DNA of 44,062 nucleotides from a virus (taxonomy: Duplodnaviria; Heunggongvirae; Uroviricota; Caudoviricetes), in IMG/VR virus record IMGVR_UViG_2529292906_000019, positions 1 through 44,062 of that record; one strand, given 5' to 3'. Each line of letters opens with the position of its first letter. Within the stretch, counting starts at the first letter, position 1. Under the pieces are notes generated by a model. That model was not told where the DNA came from, did not search any database, and worked only from the letters and a program-made list of their open reading frames with translations. Positions 27,853-43,720 of the stretch are shown in pieces. Position numbers and translations under genes: made by a program.

Positions 27853-28152
27853 TCAATCCGTTGATATTATGATATCAGAGGGTTGGGTGATGCGGTAGCC
27901 AAGTCGGCGAAGAAAACGAGTCCCAGATGAAAGGTTGAAGACCCCTTCATCCTCCAGTAATGGACGGCATGATACCAGGCCATTTCTGCTATAGACGAGA
28001 TACTGACGATCCAGTGGCATTGAGGCCATAAGCCTTCCATCTGAACGCCTGATAATGTCGTACCAATCGCCTTGCTCCTGACTTTCCTTCACAAAACCCC
28101 CTTCTTTGCTATCAACAAATTTCACTCTTCCAGCCGGGATAATCCCGTCCAC
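27853..28152 (-). CDS. hypothetical protein
   Basis: 99-aa ORF with a GTG start and no clear RBS; first ORF after a 440-bp AT-rich gap. Confidence 0.3.
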   Translation of the reverse strand: MDGIIPAGRVKFVDSKEGGFVKESQEQGDWYDIIRRSDGRLMASMPLDRQYLVYSRNGLVSCRPLLEDEGVFNLSSGTRFLRRLGYRITQPSDIIISTD

Positions 28153-28588
28153 AGAACCAACATACCAAATGGCGCAAATTTCCTAATAGGTTGGCTGGAA
28201 GAAAAAATAAAAATATTTACTGCAACATCTTAACTATACCCCAAAACAACTGTACATATAAACAGTATTCGTCTGTTTTGCTTAAGTATGCACATGAAAT
28301 CCCTGTTTGCGCAAGGTCATTTATCCGATTGATTTAGATAAATTTTATTGCTACTTTCGCGCAAAAATTGATCGTTATTTTTAACAGTTGACTACGTCAA
28401 AACTGTCGACTGTAAATATCTGATTGGAATGCTCTCGTCAGGTAAATGACAAAGGTGTAGATGTCGTCAGGGGACATATTTCACTGACAGCGAGGAAAGT
28501 CAGGTTGGTAATTTGTTGCTGCGCTGTGCTTATTTGATAATCGATTTCATAGATCAATTTTACCAAATCGATCGGTATTATCGATCGA

Positions 28589-28843
28589 CTAATATTTGTA
28601 GCGTTTTTCCGGGAGAAGAGCGTATTCGTAGGTGAAGTTGAATGCCTCGTTTTCAGTGTTAAATCGGCGTTCTGAGATATCTCTCCAGTGCCCTACCCTG
28701 AAATACTTCTGAGCAACCCACTTTCCCTCGAACGGGAACACAGCGTAAGCGCCCACGTACTGATGATCAGCGTGCGGGTCGGGATATGACTCCCCCTCTA
28801 CCAGAGAGTAAAACTTGATGCCGCTTATAATTATGCAGCTCAA
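28589..28843 (-). CDS. hypothetical protein
   Basis: 84-aa ORF with a TTG start directly after the upstream TAA; its stop abuts a GATC-rich segment. Confidence 0.35.
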   Translation of the reverse strand: MSCIIISGIKFYSLVEGESYPDPHADHQYVGAYAVFPFEGKWVAQKYFRVGHWRDISERRFNTENEAFNFTYEYALLPEKRYKY

Positions 28844-29086
28844 TTATTTTTTCTCGTTCTGCGCGGCCAGATCCAGATAGCGCGGATCGGACGCTCTTGG
28901 CAACGTCATGCTCTGCTCGCGGTAGTTGAAGTATTCACGAAGATGCTCTGGTTTCTCACGCGCTACCTGCTCATCGATAACAGGCATGTTCATGCGCTCT
29001 TTGTACGCTACGCCACTGGCAGCTAGGTCGACGTTAACCTTGTCCTGCTCTTCTTTCGATTTTGCTGCGATGTTATGACCAGACAT
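28844..29086 (-). CDS. hypothetical protein
   Basis: 80-aa ORF with an ATG start; its SD-like GAGAGGGA lies inside a perfect 9-bp hairpin. Confidence 0.4.
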
Positions 29087-29091
29087 GATGA

Positions 29092-29117
29092 ATCCCTCTC
29101 GATGCTTTGAGAGGGAT
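29092..29117 (-). promoter_or_regulatory. RBS-sequestering hairpin before the 80-aa gene
   Basis: ATCCCTCTC / GAGAGGGAT perfect 9-bp inverted repeat with an 8-nt loop, ending 5 nt before the ATG at 29086. Confidence 0.4.
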
Positions 29118-29277
29118 TATAGGTCAGGCTGCTATTTGTTTCGACTGACAAAATTCCGGCAATTTAGCACGTACTCAGTGCTTCAGCGACCGGCTGAGGA
29201 ACTTCATCAGCTCAAGGTTGCGAAGAAGGAAACCGCCAAAGTGGAACTTCTGCTTAGAATAATTTATTGATAGAAGA

Positions 29278-29556
29278 TCAGTGAATAAAATCAGTTGGGA
29301 CAGGTGTGACGCCGGATGAAATAATTAACTCAGGAAGCTCGCTACCATTCAAAGTTCTACCCACGCCTACAGCGTATGTTTCACCGTTAACCTGTATCAG
29401 ATGCACATCGTAAGAACGGTGGGACCCAGCTGAAGGTGGAGAGTTGTTACTACCAATCGACGCCTCGAAAAAATTCAACCGCTGCTTGAGTTCAGTATCC
29501 TCATAAATTTCACCATCACGTCCAAAGCCAACAAGTAAATATTTGATCATAGCCAT
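29278..29556 (-). CDS. hypothetical protein
   Basis: 92-aa ORF with GAGG upstream of the ATG. Confidence 0.4.
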   Translation of the reverse strand: MAMIKYLLVGFGRDGEIYEDTELKQRLNFFEASIGSNNSPPSAGSHRSYDVHLIQVNGETYAVGVGRTLNGSELPELIISSGVTPVPTDFIH

Positions 29557-29914
29557 GCTAACCTCAGTTCCAAGTCGTTTTTGACCTTCAATCGCTACCT
29601 AGTGGGTAACTCCCAATAACTAAGGAATAGATCAGTAGCTTTTGCCCTTAATCTCAAGAACTTTCCTTGCCTTAGATGAAGAAATCAGCACTCGATCAAA
29701 ATTTCTATTTTTTTTCTCAATTATTGACATCCCTGCCAGGCCTTATAAGACGCGCGCTTAGCGATCCTCACCCTTTTTCAAGCTCAATTTAACCTCAAAA
29801 TCAACTATTGTGCTGAAAAGAATCCCTACTACAATGGGCATCAGGAAGCAAGATATAGCAAATGGAAGTCTAAAAAACGCAATATGTTGCGTTTGGTTGG
29901 AAGGCTAAATGCGG

Positions 29915-29945
29915 ATATGAAAAACCCGGCTGATTAGACCGGGTC
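29915..29945 (-). terminator. rho-independent terminator (minus strand)
   Basis: Minus strand CCCGGTCTAATCAGCCGGG followed by TTTTTC. Confidence 0.45.
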
Positions 29946-29977
29946 TTCAATCGGTAACAGAGTTACAGCTCCGTTGC

Positions 29978-29999
29978 CGTGCCGTAAAACACTGGCGAC
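29978..29999. repeat. 22-bp direct repeat, copy 1 (CGTGCCGTAAAACACTGGCGAC)
   Basis: Identical to 30154..30175, 176 bp away, in a region with no ORF of 60 aa or more. Confidence 0.7.
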
Positions 30000-30153
30000 T
30001 TGAAGTAGCTTAATCAAATGCAGCGCATTCTTCAAGTAACCAGGAACGCCCTGAAGCACTCTGGTACACCCAGTAACAACTTAGGGACTGATATAGCTGT
30101 GAATTTTTAGTCCGGGTTTTTGGTGATTCTTAAACCCCACCCCAACAATTAAT

Positions 30154-30175
30154 CGTGCCGTAAAACACTGGCGAC
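30154..30175. repeat. 22-bp direct repeat, copy 2
   Basis: Identical to 29978..29999; lies ~70 nt upstream of a 27-codon hydrophobic ORF. Confidence 0.7.
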
Positions 30176-30246
30176 ACAGTGAAAACTGCAAAGGCAAGCC
30201 CATGGGTGTTTGCAGCTAGGCGCGATAAAACTAAGAGAGTCCCATA

Positions 30247-30330
30247 ATGGCTGACTTACTTATCAAAATCGTACCTCCGATTATCGTGATTGTTACTGCG
30301 ATCATTGAGTACGTAAACCAGCGCCCGTAA
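30247..30330 (+). CDS. possible small hydrophobic peptide (27 aa, MADLLIKIVPPIIVIVTAIIEYVNQRP)
   Basis: ATG with a weak SD, followed 14 nt after the stop by a + strand terminator; not matched to any known family. Confidence 0.2.
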   Translation: MADLLIKIVPPIIVIVTAIIEYVNQRP

Positions 30331-30343
30331 GCATGGTATAGCC

Positions 30344-30374
30344 CAAAGGCCCAGAAATGGGCCTTTCCTTTTAC
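30344..30374 (+). terminator. rho-independent terminator (+ strand)
   Basis: AAAGGCCCAGAAATGGGCCTTT followed by CCTTTTA. Confidence 0.5.
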
Positions 30375-30389
30375 GCAGCAATTCCCCTC

Positions 30390-30540
30390 AGGTTACACAG
30401 CTCAGGAAAATTAGCTCGCACCAAAGCCTCAGCAAACGGCGGAGGAACAGCGTTACCGCAGCGGGCAACCTGCTTATCCTTCACGTACTTCTTATCGCTG
30501 TAGTCCTGAATAATGATATACAACTAAGGAACATACAGCC
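30390..30540 (-). pseudogene. 3' remnant of a DNA methyltransferase gene (C-terminal ~50 codons only)
   Basis: Minus-strand translation LYIIIQDYSDKKYVKDKQVARCGNAVPPPFAEALVRANFPELCNLRGIAA*; GNAV resembles C5-methyltransferase motif X; a stop lies immediately upstream in frame, so no N-terminal part is present. Confidence 0.35.
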
Positions 30541-30626
30541 TCATACCAAGATGTTCGGTACCCAGTATCAATTGACCTCAACACATAGCAAGAAGTTATT
30601 GCACTCGTTCTCAAAGTAAAACCACC

Positions 30627-30655
30627 TTGAAAAAGAGATATCATTTTGATATCAT
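30627..30655 (+). promoter_or_regulatory. promoter with overlapping palindromic operator for the AT-rich cassette
   Basis: TTGAAA, 17-bp spacer, TATCAT; 17-bp perfect palindrome GATATCATTTTGATATC (30637..30653) overlaps the spacer and -10. Confidence 0.5.
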
Positions 30656-30688
30656 GTCTTGAGAAACCTCTAGAGGTAAGGATTCATT

Positions 30689-31054
30689 ATGCCCTTAAGC
30701 ACAGATGTTGATCGTGTGTTAACGTTCACTGAAAGACTTGAACAAATTTTAATGGAAATGGTCGAAAAACATGACCATTTCTTTGACTTCCTTCGAGTAC
30801 GGGGTGGACAAAATCTTCCCCAAACTGTTTCAGTAAAAAATGAAAAATTCAAAATTAGCATCCCATTGATTATGCTAATTTTGTTAATCACACGCTTAAT
30901 AGTCTTCAAACTTGCGATTATGTATAAGCTCATAAGATCCAAAATGCTTGAAGTGAAAGCACTGTCTAAAGTAGGCCAAAACACGCATATCTATCTTTTT
31001 GATTTAGATACAGTTCGGAAATTGAACATTAAGGAGACCTTATGTCACGCATGA
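30689..31054 (+). CDS. first gene of the three-gene cassette, unknown function
   Basis: 121-codon ORF in AT-rich DNA; RBS AGGTAAGGA before the ATG; overlaps the next gene by 13 nt. Confidence 0.45.
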   Translation: MPLSTDVDRVLTFTERLEQILMEMVEKHDHFFDFLRVRGGQNLPQTVSVKNEKFKISIPLIMLILLITRLIVFKLAIMYKLIRSKMLEVKALSKVGQNTHIYLFDLDTVRKLNIKETLCHA

Positions 31055-31317
31055 AAAAGCCTGACAGCTTTCTCCTTAGATTCAAAGAAGAAGATGGTAT
31101 CAACGGTATCAGTTCTGAATCCTTTGAAAAACTAATGAAAGCTACTGGCATGAGTAAAACAGACCTCATGCATTTTGCACTCGTAAACTTAGTGGAAAAA
31201 TACATCCCGGCTTATGAGCAAGATGATGGGCCCTTGACCGAAGCTCAATTCCGGACACTACATGAAAGATCGAAAACTAACCAAACGCCGGATGAGAGTT
31301 TCGAAATGCTATTGTAG
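31042..31317 (+). CDS. putative antitoxin, DinJ/RelB-like ribbon-helix-helix
   Basis: 91 aa; ...FKEEDGINGISSESFEKLMKATGMSKTDLMHFALVNLVEK parallels the DinJ N-terminal pattern recalled from memory; RBS AAGGAGA; directly upstream of the MazF-like gene. Confidence 0.5.
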   Translation: MSRMKKPDSFLLRFKEEDGINGISSESFEKLMKATGMSKTDLMHFALVNLVEKYIPAYEQDDGPLTEAQFRTLHERSKTNQTPDESFEMLL

Positions 31318-31325
31318 GTATAAAA

Positions 31326-31727
31326 ATGCATTCGAAAATAGAACCATTGCCAAAGACCGGCGATATTGTTTGGCTACAACCATCTGAAGAATGGGGAGTT
31401 GATACTCCCAAAAGGAGACCAGGTGTGGTATTAGGTGTATCGAAACTAAGGCATGAAATCATAGTTGCATTCGGTACGAGCCAAAAAACACACAAACTCT
31501 ACCCATCAGAGTTTCTTATTCAAAAAGCTGATGGCGATGATGTTTTTGGTCTATCTGGGTTAAGCTACGATACTAAATTTGACTTAGCCAGAACATCTAT
31601 CCTGCCTTTTACTACAGAGTTTTTCTCTAAGGCACCAAGAAAAAATAATGTCCCTTATCCAAAGCTTGGTAGTGTTCATATAACGTACTACAAAGCGATG
31701 TGCAAGGCGAAAAACAATAGTAATTGA
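31326..31727 (+). CDS. putative toxin, MazF/PemK/Kid-like fold
   Basis: 133 aa; GDIVWLQP...RRPGVVLGVS...IIVAFGTSQ...SEFLI parallels MazF GDLIWVDF...HRPAVVLS...VPCTTQ...FEVVL from memory. Confidence 0.6.
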   Translation: MHSKIEPLPKTGDIVWLQPSEEWGVDTPKRRPGVVLGVSKLRHEIIVAFGTSQKTHKLYPSEFLIQKADGDDVFGLSGLSYDTKFDLARTSILPFTTEFFSKAPRKNNVPYPKLGSVHITYYKAMCKAKNNSN

Positions 31728-42055: not shown

Positions 42056-42328
42056 ATGGCCAAGCTTCTTAATCTGCAGGAATGGGCGAATTCGACTTAT
42101 TCAACCCCGCCGTCTCTTTCAACACTTCGCCGCTGGGCGCGGGAGGGGCGCATTTACCCTGCTCCGGAACTTCACGGAAAAGAATATAAGGTTCAGCCTG
42201 ACGCCATCTATGTGGATCCGAGCAAAAAGAACCTTCGTCCCAAATCAAAACGCTTAGCGCTGCCAACTGGCGGCACTCTACTGGAGAGACTGACTCATGG
42301 CGAAAAGGCCAGTACGTTACGACGCTAA
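42056..42328 (+). CDS. xis: excisionase (lambda Xis-like)
   Basis: LNLQEWANS...PPSLSTLRRWAREGRIYPAPELHGKEY parallels lambda Xis LTLQEW...RPRSLETVRRWVRECRIFPPPVKDGREY; precedes int with overlap. Confidence 0.65.
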   Translation: MAKLLNLQEWANSTYSTPPSLSTLRRWAREGRIYPAPELHGKEYKVQPDAIYVDPSKKNLRPKSKRLALPTGGTLLERLTHGEKASTLRR

Positions 42329-43382
42329 CCTGCCCCGTAACCTGACCTATCGTAAAAGAGACAGGCTTTATAGCTGGCGAAACCCGATTACCGGTCAAGA
42401 ATTATCTCTTGGCCGGATCGACAGAAAGGACGCCATTTCTCAGGCCATCGAGGCCAACAACTACATCGACCAAAATTACCTTCCGTCAGCGCTGCTTGAC
42501 CGCATAAAGGAAACACCAACATTTACGGTGAAAGCGTGGCTCGAGCGCTACGAAGTAATTCTTGAGCGAAGAGAATTGAAGCCCAACACGATGAAGGTCA
42601 GGCGCAATCAGATCGCCACTATCAGTGATGAATTCGGACGTATGCCGCTATCGGCGGTCAGCACAAAGGACGTATCTACTTTCCTGGAGAGTTACATACT
42701 CTGCGATAAGAAGAGCATGGCCTCTGGCCTGCGATCGGTATTGTTGGATATTTTCAGGGAGGCGATCGTCGAGGGACATATTGAAAGGAACCCGGCAGAG
42801 CCGACAAGAACGCCGACACCAAAAGTGAAGCGTGAGCGTCTTTTGCTCGAGCAGTTTGAGATAATAAGGGATGCCGCAACTGCTCATTCTGGATGGGCTG
42901 CAAATGCATGTGACCTGGCGCTGGTCACCGGGCAGAGAAGAGAGGACGTATCGCTGTTCAGATTCAGCGATATCAGGGATGGAAGATTGTTTGTCACACA
43001 GGAAAAGACAGGTCACAAATTGGCGTTGCCACTTGATTTGCGACTGGACTCTGCTGATTTGGTATTGCAGGATGTTATCGACCGTTGTCGTAAAAACAAC
43101 CCGTCAGACTTCATGCTTTATTCTGCGGTAAGGCGTGGTGGCCGGAAGCCAGGTCCGTTAACTCCGGACGGAATCACCCAAGCATTTTCTGATATCAGGG
43201 ATTCTACAGAGTTAAAGTTTGGCCCCAACCCTCCCCCGTTCCATGAGATCAGGAGCTTGGCGAGCAGGCTCTATGAAAGGGAGCGCGGAGAGGATTTCGC
43301 ACAGAGACTGCTGGGGCATAAAAATTTAACAATGACCAAAAAATACCTGGACGCACGCGGTGCAGAATATGTTATGGTTTAG
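42297..43382 (+). CDS. int: site-specific integrase (tyrosine recombinase, lambda Int family)
   Basis: 361 aa; C-terminal catalytic region ...HEIRSLASRLYERERG...RLLGHKNLTMTKKYLDARG (conserved R, H-x-x-R and Y); adjacent to attR. Confidence 0.85.
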   Translation: MAKRPVRYDANLPRNLTYRKRDRLYSWRNPITGQELSLGRIDRKDAISQAIEANNYIDQNYLPSALLDRIKETPTFTVKAWLERYEVILERRELKPNTMKVRRNQIATISDEFGRMPLSAVSTKDVSTFLESYILCDKKSMASGLRSVLLDIFREAIVEGHIERNPAEPTRTPTPKVKRERLLLEQFEIIRDAATAHSGWAANACDLALVTGQRREDVSLFRFSDIRDGRLFVTQEKTGHKLALPLDLRLDSADLVLQDVIDRCRKNNPSDFMLYSAVRRGGRKPGPLTPDGITQAFSDIRDSTELKFGPNPPPFHEIRSLASRLYERERGEDFAQRLLGHKNLTMTKKYLDARGAEYVMV

Positions 43383-43455
43383 ACAGGATATGGAAATTTC
43401 GAGTAATTTTCGTGGGATTTCGTGAAAGCACCGAAAAAACCCAATGAAAACAGAT

Positions 43456-43485
43456 AGATAAAAAGAGACCGAATACGATTCCTGT
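43456..43485. repeat. prophage attachment site attR (integrase side), within the sdsR 3' end
   Basis: AGATAAAAAGAGACCGAATACGATTCCTGT; direct repeat of 1064..1093 with one mismatch. Confidence 0.6.
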
Positions 43486-43562
43486 ATTCGGTCCAGGGAA
43501 ATGGCTCTTGGGAGAGAGCCGTGCGCTAAAAGTTGGCATTAATGCAGGCTTAGTTGCCTTGC
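43458..43562 (-). ncRNA. sdsR: small RNA SdsR (RyeB)
   Basis: The minus strand reads GCAAGGCAACTAAGCCTGCATTAATGCC...GACCGAATACAGGAATCGTATTCGGTCTCTTTTT, matching SdsR as recalled, with a terminal hairpin and U-tract; CTATTCTTAA (sigma-S type -10) lies just upstream at ~43566..43576. Confidence 0.75.
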
Positions 43563-43720
43563 CCTTTAAGAATAGATGACGACGCCAGGTTTTCCAGTTT
43601 GCGTGCAAAATGGTCAATAAAAAGCGCGGTAGTCATCAGCTTAAATGTTAAAAACCGCCCGTTCTGGTGAAAGAACTGAGGCGGTTTTTTTATTGGAAAT
43701 CAAAAGGCTATTTTAGGTAA

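Follow-up and report, generated by a model that had tools for sequence, protein, structure and literature searches.

The window considered here is a complete 44,062-nucleotide (nt) stretch of DNA, IMG/VR virus record IMGVR_UViG_2529292906_000019 (Caudoviricetes), and the element in question is a module of about 460 bp near position 30,000 that is predicted to specify two divergent RNAs: a small RNA (sRNA) from the minus strand and, from the plus strand, the messenger RNA (mRNA) of a short hydrophobic peptide. The module is built around a perfect 22-bp direct repeat, CGTGCCGTAAAACACTGGCGAC on the plus strand, which lies at 29978-29999 (copy 1) and at 30154-30175 (copy 2). A third copy is absent from both strands of the window even when up to three mismatches are allowed, and the chance expectation for such a repeat is 0 (no matches in 100 dinucleotide-preserving shuffles). 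An initial annotation had drawn attention to this repeat, to a 27-codon hydrophobic open reading frame (ORF) beside it and to terminators flanking the locus on both strands, and had read the arrangement as that of a type I toxin-antitoxin (TA) pair. All of these elements were recovered, the repeat in exactly two copies, the ORF with a Shine-Dalgarno (SD) sequence and the terminators as hairpins conserved in homologs, and the structural interpretation placed on them is supported by comparative sequence data. It is very probable, judging from these sequences, that the locus encodes a genuine sRNA/mRNA pair controlling a conserved small membrane peptide, and we consider it likely that the whole is a self-contained, mobile type I TA-like module composed of the sRNA and a peptide mRNA of about 260 nt. 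Observed in silico are conserved signals of both RNAs, strand-specific covariation of their pairing regions, a structured mRNA leader and coding constraint on the ORF. The principal features are the following.

29918..30000, minus strand: predicted antisense (antitoxin-like) sRNA of about 81-84 nt, its ends placed from the promoter footprint and the U-tract.
29920..29948, minus strand: intrinsic terminator of the sRNA, stem ACCCGG/CCGGGT then UUUUU.
29952..29979, minus strand: internal stem-loop of the sRNA, with substitutions that change both sides (columns 24-50 of the alignment).
29978..29999, minus strand: repeat copy 1, whose reverse complement is sRNA nt 2-23, the predicted target-recognition sequence.
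30007..30035, minus strand: predicted sRNA promoter, -35 TTGAAG (30035 to 30030), 17-nt spacer, -10 TAAGCT (30012 to 30007).
30154..30175, plus strand: repeat copy 2, predicted sRNA target in the 5′ untranslated region (UTR), 72-93 nt upstream of the AUG.
30233..30239, plus strand: SD sequence AAGAGAG, which is AAGUGAGG or AAGUAAGG in homologs.
30247..30330, plus strand: peptide ORF of 27 codons encoding MADLLIKIVPPIIVIVTAIIEYVNQRP, a hydrophobic single-helix toxin candidate.
30345..30372, plus strand: intrinsic terminator of the mRNA, AAAGGCCCA-GAAA-TGGGCCTTT then CCTTTT; a hairpin after the last ORF is conserved in homologs.

Homologs were collected with a degenerate pattern built on an almost invariant hairpin of the mRNA leader (P3, below), which retrieved 28 viral, 2 genome and 17 metagenome contigs; together with plasmid loci these form a comparative set of 57 occurrences and 33 distinct sequences. 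Both repeat copies are kept in all 57 (33/33 distinct homologs), with copy 1 152-179 nt upstream of copy 2 and copy 2 30-34 nt upstream of the invariant hairpin in all homologs. The outer parts of the repeat are conserved (GCC... and ...CTGGCGAC) and its core differs by lineage, as GTAAAACA, [A/G]TAAGTAT, [A/G]AATGTAT or GTTGTTAA, each change being present in both copies; the further core variants CTGGCAGC and CTGGCTAC are likewise matched between copies. About four core alleles can be recognized, referred to as window-type, ATAAGTAT-type, AAATGTAT-type and GTTGTTAA-type.

The two copies are not always identical, and their differences carry information about which strands pair. Pairing was scored over 11 distinct allele pairs at 19 core positions (positions 4-22). 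From copy 1 to copy 2 the differences are limited to C to T (two sites) and A to G (two sites), and when the sRNA is taken from the minus strand of copy 1 and the mRNA from the plus strand of copy 2 the result is 199 Watson-Crick pairs, 10 G·U pairs and 0 mismatches. With the opposite strand assignment the same 10 positions become C·A or A·C mismatches. The initial annotation had suggested that a minus-strand RNA running through copy 1 would pair with the leader of the peptide mRNA, and it is for precisely these strands that all copy differences are G·U-compatible. Positions 1-3 and 23-24 of the repeat mismatch freely, which sets the limits of the duplex at 19-22 bp. Cognate duplexes are predicted at -39 to -44 kcal/mol and in each comparison rank first or fall short of the top value by no more than about 3 kcal/mol; alleles with closely related cores pair with one another about equally well and different core types much more weakly, the window allele reaching only -18 to -36 kcal/mol with other alleles. 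Within the 44-kb window, the sole strong trans target of the sRNA 5′ end is copy 2, at -45.3 kcal/mol, with the next best site at -29. These comparisons support the view that the repeat pair co-evolves as an RNA duplex with a defined polarity.

The antisense RNA gene is delimited by phylogenetic footprints. In 23 of 23 distinct versions the motif TTG[AT][AT]G is followed by a 17-nt spacer, TAA[GT][CA]T, 6 nt and the pairing region, and 13 different spacer sequences occur between the two promoter elements. In the window this footprint sets the predicted transcription start site (TSS) at A30000, so that the predicted 5′ end falls exactly at copy 1, in agreement with the antisense RNA assigned here by the initial annotation. 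The promoter looks to be of the sigma-70 type and appears constitutive. No promoter had earlier been assigned with confidence; that of the sRNA is now predicted from its conserved footprint, and that of the mRNA is still a weak candidate. The minus-strand terminator has its stem at 29924-29929/29939-29944 and its U-tract encoded by A29920-29924, and compensatory versions of the stem are found in homologs (CCCGG/CCGGG, GCTCGG/CCGAGC, GCCCAG/CTGGGC). The consensus of 19 distinct homologs consists of the 5′ pairing region, a stem-loop, an A/U-rich linker and the terminator, with 6 compensatory pairs, and the 84-nt sRNA has a minimum free energy (MFE) of -31.8 kcal/mol (z = -3.7). A simple consensus scan for promoters and terminators reported neither inside the module. 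The two terminators were missed because one loop has 9 nt and the T-run of the other lies partly within its stem, and the sRNA promoter because its -10 matches at only 3/6 positions; as such criteria overlook both terminators and a TAAGCT -10, footprints were used instead. One further proposal of the initial annotation, a stem-loop formed by the inverted repeat CTTGAAG/CTTCAAG, was rejected as a functional element: the inverted repeat exists in the window, but it is not conserved in homologs and it overlaps the antisense promoter, of which its right arm is the -35.

The ORF begins 7 nt after the end of the SD and encodes a peptide of 27 amino acids (aa), 59% of them hydrophobic. In every homolog an SD precedes the ORF, and the distance from the start of the invariant hairpin to that of the ORF is 59-64 nt. 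The peptides form three subfamilies. Those of type A, MxxLLxK[I/V]VPPxxxIxxA[I/L]IEYV[N/H]QRP, are encoded by a single ORF, as in the window, and a second locus class has two tandem ORFs, MQMLLLFLKLAHPVAVIIMTLLGYWKDR then MVSLLLKILPPLVAIITTIIDYINKR. Variable columns at the three codon positions number 10/3/16, 11/5/17 and 12/9/19 in the three subfamilies, and the ratio of non-synonymous to synonymous variation (pN/pS) is 0.23 for type A and 0.22 and 0.37 for the others; because of this codon-position bias and low pN/pS the ORFs are regarded as genuinely coding. The peptide is under purifying selection. The initial annotation had matched it to no toxin family, and the database searches agree: for the three subfamilies, Pfam, NCBIfam, PHROGs and PADLOC gave no family, the sole listing being a PHROG at E = 0.16, and Pfam and NCBIfam gave no peptide match at E<=10. 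An exact look-up of the peptide returned two records only, unnamed or 'hypothetical'. The tandem arrangement, class B, is seen in loci L001 (5060-5830), L003, L006, L007, L009 and L014, where one leader and target site serve two small hydrophobic ORFs of 28 aa and then 25-27 aa, with an SD for each; L011 has the first type only.

The leader of the predicted mRNA contains the following elements, all on the plus strand.

30098..30106: weak candidate extended -10 element (TGtGAATTT) of the mRNA.
30114..30137: hairpin P0 at the predicted mRNA 5′ end, GGGUUU...AAACCC.
30138..30151: C/A-rich linker 5′ of the target, predicted to be unpaired (mean unpaired probability 0.66 across alleles, 0.84 in the window allele).
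30152..30226: multibranch structure P1+P2+P3, from independent MFE folds.
30152-59 with 30219-26: closing helix P1, AUCGUGCC : GGCGCGAU, with compensatory changes; it includes the 5′ end of copy 2.
30166-70 with 30177-81: P2, CACUG : CAGUG, its 5′ arm supplied by the variable core of copy 2 and its loop reading GCGACA.
30186-30215: P3, the almost invariant hairpin.
30268..30275: ORF segment AUCGUACC (codons 8-10), which can pair with GGCGCGAU instead of P1, giving helix P1′.

The mRNA is predicted to start at about 30113 and to be about 260 nt long, with a z of -3.56 for the whole molecule. In homologs a weak, loosely conserved -10-like element recurs, ending 43-55 nt upstream of copy 2. Covariation is seen in P0 (GGGUUU/AAACCC, AGGUUU/AAACCU, GGGCUC/GAGUCU), and the C/A-rich linker that follows it is a possible ribosome standby or loading region by analogy with known leaders. 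The P1+P2+P3 arrangement was recovered in 17 of 19 independent MFE leader folds; leaders were folded one by one and aligned pairs were not counted, because MAFFT mis-registers the short and variable P2. The 3′ arm of P2, a third segment lying outside both repeat copies, co-varies with the repeat core (CACUG/CAGUG, AUCUG/CAGAU, GUUAAC/GUUAAC), and the P2 loop shows GCGAC(A/U), complementary to the sRNA 5′ end. The folds thus suggest a leader structure that displays the target site. In the alternative helix P1′, GGCGCGA[U/G] pairs with codons 8-10 ([A/C]UCG[U/C]GC) instead of with copy 2, and the SD and AUG become enclosed. P1′ has a mean probability of 0.71 in full-length mRNAs and is dominant in most of them; in the window allele its probability rises from 0.41 with the target site free to 0.82 with the site blocked. 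Compensation in P1′ is class-specific (GAU:AUC versus GAG:CUC), a covariation that is confounded by coding constraint on those codons. The modelling gives some support to a P1/P1′ switch, for the window allele only.

The module recurs in widely different genomes. Distant blastn matches occur in 128 plasmid records from Escherichia, Citrobacter, Klebsiella, Enterobacter, Kosakonia and others, and blastn also places the module in the phage genomes Cyrano and CMS-2020a; among the listed records that carry annotation, a single 'hypothetical protein' is the only annotation under the match. The module is present in 115 of 5426 complete E. coli genomes, at 116 places, 106 of them on plasmids (mostly of about 90-120 kb), and at none of the 116 places has PGAP annotated it. 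Blastn against the same 5426 genomes gave no similarity to chromosomal loci except copies of the module, and the ubiquitous chromosomal tisB, shoB, zorO and dinQ loci were unmatched. Enterobacterial plasmid carriers are mostly phage-plasmids of about 100-120 kb, and the backbones as a whole comprise a lambdoid prophage, these phage-plasmids, conjugative IncF plasmids and sites adjoining rep genes. The flanks are wholly different among records (RepB, RepA, IS3 transposase, phage-plasmid genes, S24 peptidase), and no conserved protein-coding neighbour is shared across backbones. On these sequence grounds the module is best described as a compact, self-contained, horizontally mobile unit that annotation pipelines have missed. 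The literature search found no paper with the peptide sequences or with a type I system on these phage-plasmids, a bare earlier listing among the roughly 2000 predicted ORFs in the tables of Fozo et al. 2010 being possible. A copy of the E. coli phage-plasmid type was also found in contig L015 (JAEWTL010000044.1, a 'Bacillota bacterium' metagenome-assembled genome), which is probably a mis-binned enterobacterial or phage-plasmid contig and not a true Bacillota occurrence.

The mechanism that we infer, which extends to transcription, toxicity, an RNase III or standby route and a biological role, would run as follows. An sRNA of about 84 nt would be transcribed leftward from the promoter at 30035-30007, its first 22 nt or so being the reverse complement of copy 1, and an mRNA of about 260 nt would be transcribed rightward from about 30113, carrying copy 2 in its 5′ UTR followed by the SD and the ORF for the hydrophobic membrane peptide. 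The sRNA 5′ end (AGUCGCC...) would first touch the GGCGAC(U) loop of P2, after which pairing would grow into a 19-22-bp duplex and unzip P1. Since this duplex lies 72-93 nt upstream of the AUG, the SD would not be masked directly and repression would be indirect. The likely routes are RNase III cleavage with decay of the mRNA, and blockage of the unpaired C/A-rich loading region next to the duplex; a third possibility is that GGCGCGAU, once released, shifts onto codons 8-10 and encloses the SD and AUG. Loss of the element, or of a short-lived sRNA, would allow the peptide to be made and the membrane to be damaged, with the outcome that the prophage or phage-plasmid is stabilised or competitors are excluded. 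The variable repeat core would set the partnership of sRNA and mRNA.

Several observations weigh against this interpretation. The transcripts of both strands are predicted from sequence signals, and the mRNA promoter has no confident sigma-70 site in the window by consensus scan, scoring with a position weight matrix across homologs having yielded weak and loosely co-located candidates. The architecture of transcription may also exceed two short RNAs, since a promoter of the nrdAB type (described below) points into the module in most lineages. The directionality of the G·U pairs is based on only about 4-6 independent substitution events. A simple switch in which the SD is sequestered was rejected, as blocking the target leaves the accessibility of the SD and AUG unchanged (0.405 versus 0.406), and the mode of repression is proposed by analogy. 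Toxicity is assumed solely from the size, hydrophobicity and context of the peptide.

Type I systems of a non-overlapping divergent subgroup (ShoB/OhsC, TisB/IstR-1, Zor/Orz, DinQ/AgrB) have the antisense RNA gene 5′ of the mRNA gene, on the opposite strand and less than 300 nt away, with an interaction region of at least 15 nt in the 5′ UTR (PMC8594479). At the present locus the predicted sRNA TSS lies at about 30000, the mRNA start at about 30113 and the 19-22-nt pairing at 30154-30175. There is also a small (<60 aa), hydrophobic, coding ORF and a locally encoded antisense RNA with pairing potential, as judged by its footprint, its covarying structure and terminator and its 19-22-nt complementarity. 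The likeness to tisB/istR, zorO/orzO and shoB/ohsC noticed in the initial annotation is therefore in keeping with the subgroup as it has been described (PMC8594479, PMC3919570), and by its sequence the module looks like a new family within the divergent, 5′-UTR-targeting type I TA class.

The zorO/orzO and zorP/orzP loci of E. coli O157:H7 resemble the module in having an antisense gene that lies 5′ of the toxin gene, diverges from it and does not overlap it (PMC3919570, PMC5397157, PMC8594479), in an sRNA 5′ end that pairs with about 18-22 nt far ahead of the SD in a long 5′ UTR, and in the size of the toxin (about 27-29 aa). In OrzO and OrzP the V1 region dictates cognate recognition and paralogous alleles exist, a counterpart of the variable core of the module; OrzO, IstR-1 and OhsC pair through their 5′ ends, and OrzO depends on cleavage of the duplex by RNase III (PMC3919570). 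However, there is no similarity in peptide, sRNA or DNA. The module peptide has a PP motif and a polar EYVNQRP tail, some versions of the module encode two different tandem peptides under one leader, and the module resides on phage-plasmids and prophages, whereas zorO/orzO occupies a fixed chromosomal site. The shoB/ohsC locus is also divergent in layout, with 19 nt common to the OhsC 5′ end and the shoB 5′ UTR (PMC3919570), but it has no sequence homology to the module and is a chromosomal single-copy locus.

In tisB/istR-1, as proposed for the module, the 5′ end of the sRNA binds some 100 nt ahead of a sequestered ribosome binding site, within a structured and inert mRNA that has an unpaired region near the target; there the sRNA occludes a single-stranded ribosome standby region (PMC7708055). 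The module shows no TisB or IstR homology and has no tisA-like upstream ORF, and LexA control of the TisB kind was rejected, as no LexA box (CTG-N10-CAG) occurs in 27 distinct loci. By analogy, the closest ecological counterpart is dqlB/agrB (DinQ-like; pOXA-48 and others), a plasmid-borne and usually unannotated type I system with a trans-acting sRNA whose complement lies in the 5′ UTR of the mRNA for a small hydrophobic toxin, experimentally validated in 2025 as an addiction module of pOXA-48 (PMC12365149). It differs from the module in the length of complementarity (35 nt against 19-22 nt) and in its replicons (IncL/M, I1 and X against phage-plasmids and prophages). The module peptides do not group with DinQ/AgrB or DqlB/agrB, as they have no match in NCBIfam or Pfam, libraries which we take to include DinQ/DqlB models.

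Hok/Sok systems are more distant: a Hok-type toxin has about 50 aa and an overlapping mok, against 26-28 aa for the module peptide, and Sok overlaps the mok translation initiation region, whereas the antisense gene of the module does not overlap the mRNA; Rfam Sok and Pfam Hok have no match in the module. In the folding models, the P1′-folded full-length mRNA resembles the inert full-length mRNAs of hok, dinQ and tisB. Rfam gave no family at gathering thresholds, nor at E<=10 on 28100-30750, and a match to isrK (17.5 bits, E ~1) was dismissed as covering the terminator region only. As Rfam, the protein libraries and blastn gave no similarity and no LexA box was found, the module is placed, on sequence, outside each of these families.

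Among alternative explanations, the one that survives best accepts the RNA pair as real and takes the peptide to be non-toxic, that is, a small membrane protein under sRNA control (for example modulating a transporter or kinase, or acting in superinfection exclusion or lysis timing) with no addiction module. Many small hydrophobic proteins are non-toxic regulators, and the peptide is unlike known toxin families. Such a housekeeping role accords less well with a gene pair that is tightly linked and self-contained, that moves as a unit between plasmids and prophages, often beside replication genes, and whose sRNA and target are matched allele by allele; in the models, moreover, the mRNA is structured and apparently inert and hides the translation start. 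Linkage, mobility, allele-specific matching and a buried start are hallmarks of type I TA systems, and for that reason a type I TA module is preferred and a non-toxic regulator is thought unlikely, if still worth serious consideration.

A cassette for replication or copy-number control, of the CopA/CopT or Inc-RNA type with a leader peptide coupled to a downstream rep gene, is a very improbable alternative. Systems of the CopA/CopT type likewise combine an antisense RNA with a structured target loop and a short leader ORF, and some plasmid copies of the module do adjoin repA or repB. Yet a terminator directly follows the ORF, and none of the loci has a rep gene downstream. Where rep genes adjoin the module they are upstream of it, encoded by the opposite strand in L006 and, in L009, by the same strand ahead of the antisense gene. 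The module also occurs in the nin region of a lambdoid prophage and on phage-plasmids far from rep genes. Purifying selection moreover acts on the whole peptide and not merely on its existence. Hardly credible, finally, is the reading, raised in the initial annotation as a means of refutation, of the repeats as features of the DNA itself (iterons, operators, or recombination or duplication scars) beside a fortuitous ORF, for although paired operators are in principle conceivable for direct repeats some 175 bp apart, the substitutions between copies are strand-asymmetric, which would be meaningless for binding to double-stranded DNA and is the reason for rejecting iterons and scars, a third, inverted segment co-varies with the core as an RNA hairpin, no conserved protein gene travels with the module, the ORF has codon-position bias and a pN/pS of about 0.2, and the repeat boundaries are sharp and conserved in lineages only about 70% identical.

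The promoter mentioned above belongs to a block found ahead of the type I TA-like module, with unchanged orientation, in all lineages but the abundant E. coli phage-plasmid version. In the window the block, at 29640-29835, is 93% identical to the ubiG-nrdA intergenic region of Citrobacter freundii. It holds a conserved TTGT[G/A]C-16-TA[G/C]AAT promoter aimed into the module, which is TTGTGC-16-TACAAT at 29808-29813 and 29830-29835 of the window and is antisense to the antitoxin gene and sense to the toxin. Plasmid loci have two NrdR-box-like 16-mers after the promoter, 14-15 bp apart, and one of these plasmid boxes, CCCCTATATGTAGTAT, is identical at 14/16 positions to the experimentally defined E. 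coli nrdAB box 1, the sequence of which was taken from published oligonucleotides (PMC12176259). The window has one good NrdR-box-like palindrome, box B, ACGCAATATGTTGCGT, at 29877-29892. In an E. coli chromosome the block is found by itself ahead of an unrelated gene, and hence behaves as a portable promoter cassette. It is conceivable, though doubtful, that NrdR de-repression (upon dATP/ATP imbalance, replication stress or phage takeover of nucleotide metabolism) causes read-through into the module, with titration of or interference with the antitoxin and a long toxin transcript. If true, the module would be a nucleotide-pool-triggered type I TA or abortive-infection switch, and the recurrence of the nrdAB/NrdR-type promoter suggests a link of nucleotide-pool sensing to toxin activation.

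If confirmed, the module would extend the few type I TA systems of enterobacteria by one family of toxin peptides and one of antitoxin sRNAs, both new. It also marks a gap in annotation, being unannotated in 115 E. coli genomes and 128 plasmid records and absent from Rfam, Pfam, NCBIfam, PHROGs and PADLOC. Its carriers are phage-plasmids of about 100-120 kb and other plasmids from clinical isolates of E. coli, Klebsiella, Citrobacter and Enterobacter, on which it could act as an addiction or exclusion determinant, as DqlB/agrB does on pOXA-48. The four or so matched sRNA/target alleles, with the third co-varying hairpin arm, offer a natural system for the evolution of RNA-RNA specificity and the avoidance of cross-talk between co-resident elements.

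The window itself is Escherichia chromosome with a lambdoid-type prophage, whose late genes are on the minus strand and whose integrase gene is at 42297-43382. The right end of the window consists of yebY - SraC/RyeA - SdsR/RyeB and is 95-99% or more identical to the yebY region in 5426/5426 complete E. coli genomes; since the integrase gene abuts SraC/RyeA - SdsR/RyeB (42297-43600), the prophage is taken to be integrated at the sRNA locus next to yebY. The module occupies the accessory ('nin-like') region, with the replication genes on one side and the late-gene regulator on the other. Immediately to its right, 30371-30523 on the minus strand encodes the last 50 or so codons of a C5 DNA cytosine methyltransferase with a GNAVPPPF motif; methylase genes in lambdoid and Klebsiella phages match it at 75-91% identity. 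No more of the gene is present, and this points to mosaic insertions on both sides. Further right, at 30627-31727 on the plus strand, is a three-ORF cassette behind a promoter-like site, TTGAAA-17-TATCAT with a TG (30627-30655). PADLOC gave no match on this cassette. Its last ORF (31326-31727) has a weak PemK/MazF-like match, with E = 1.4e-4, just below the Pfam cut-off, and the 91-aa ORF preceding it could be its antitoxin. To the left of the module is another ORF-poor stretch on the minus strand (28152-28590 and 28441-28608), in which Rfam gives a match to IS102 RNA that is below threshold (29 bits, gathering score 46; E = 0.026) and is centred on a perfect palindrome, TCGATCGATAATACCGATCGA. 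Between this stretch and the module, 28844-29086 on the minus strand encodes a HolE-like prophage protein homologous to the theta subunit of DNA polymerase III (Pfam E = 3e-29).

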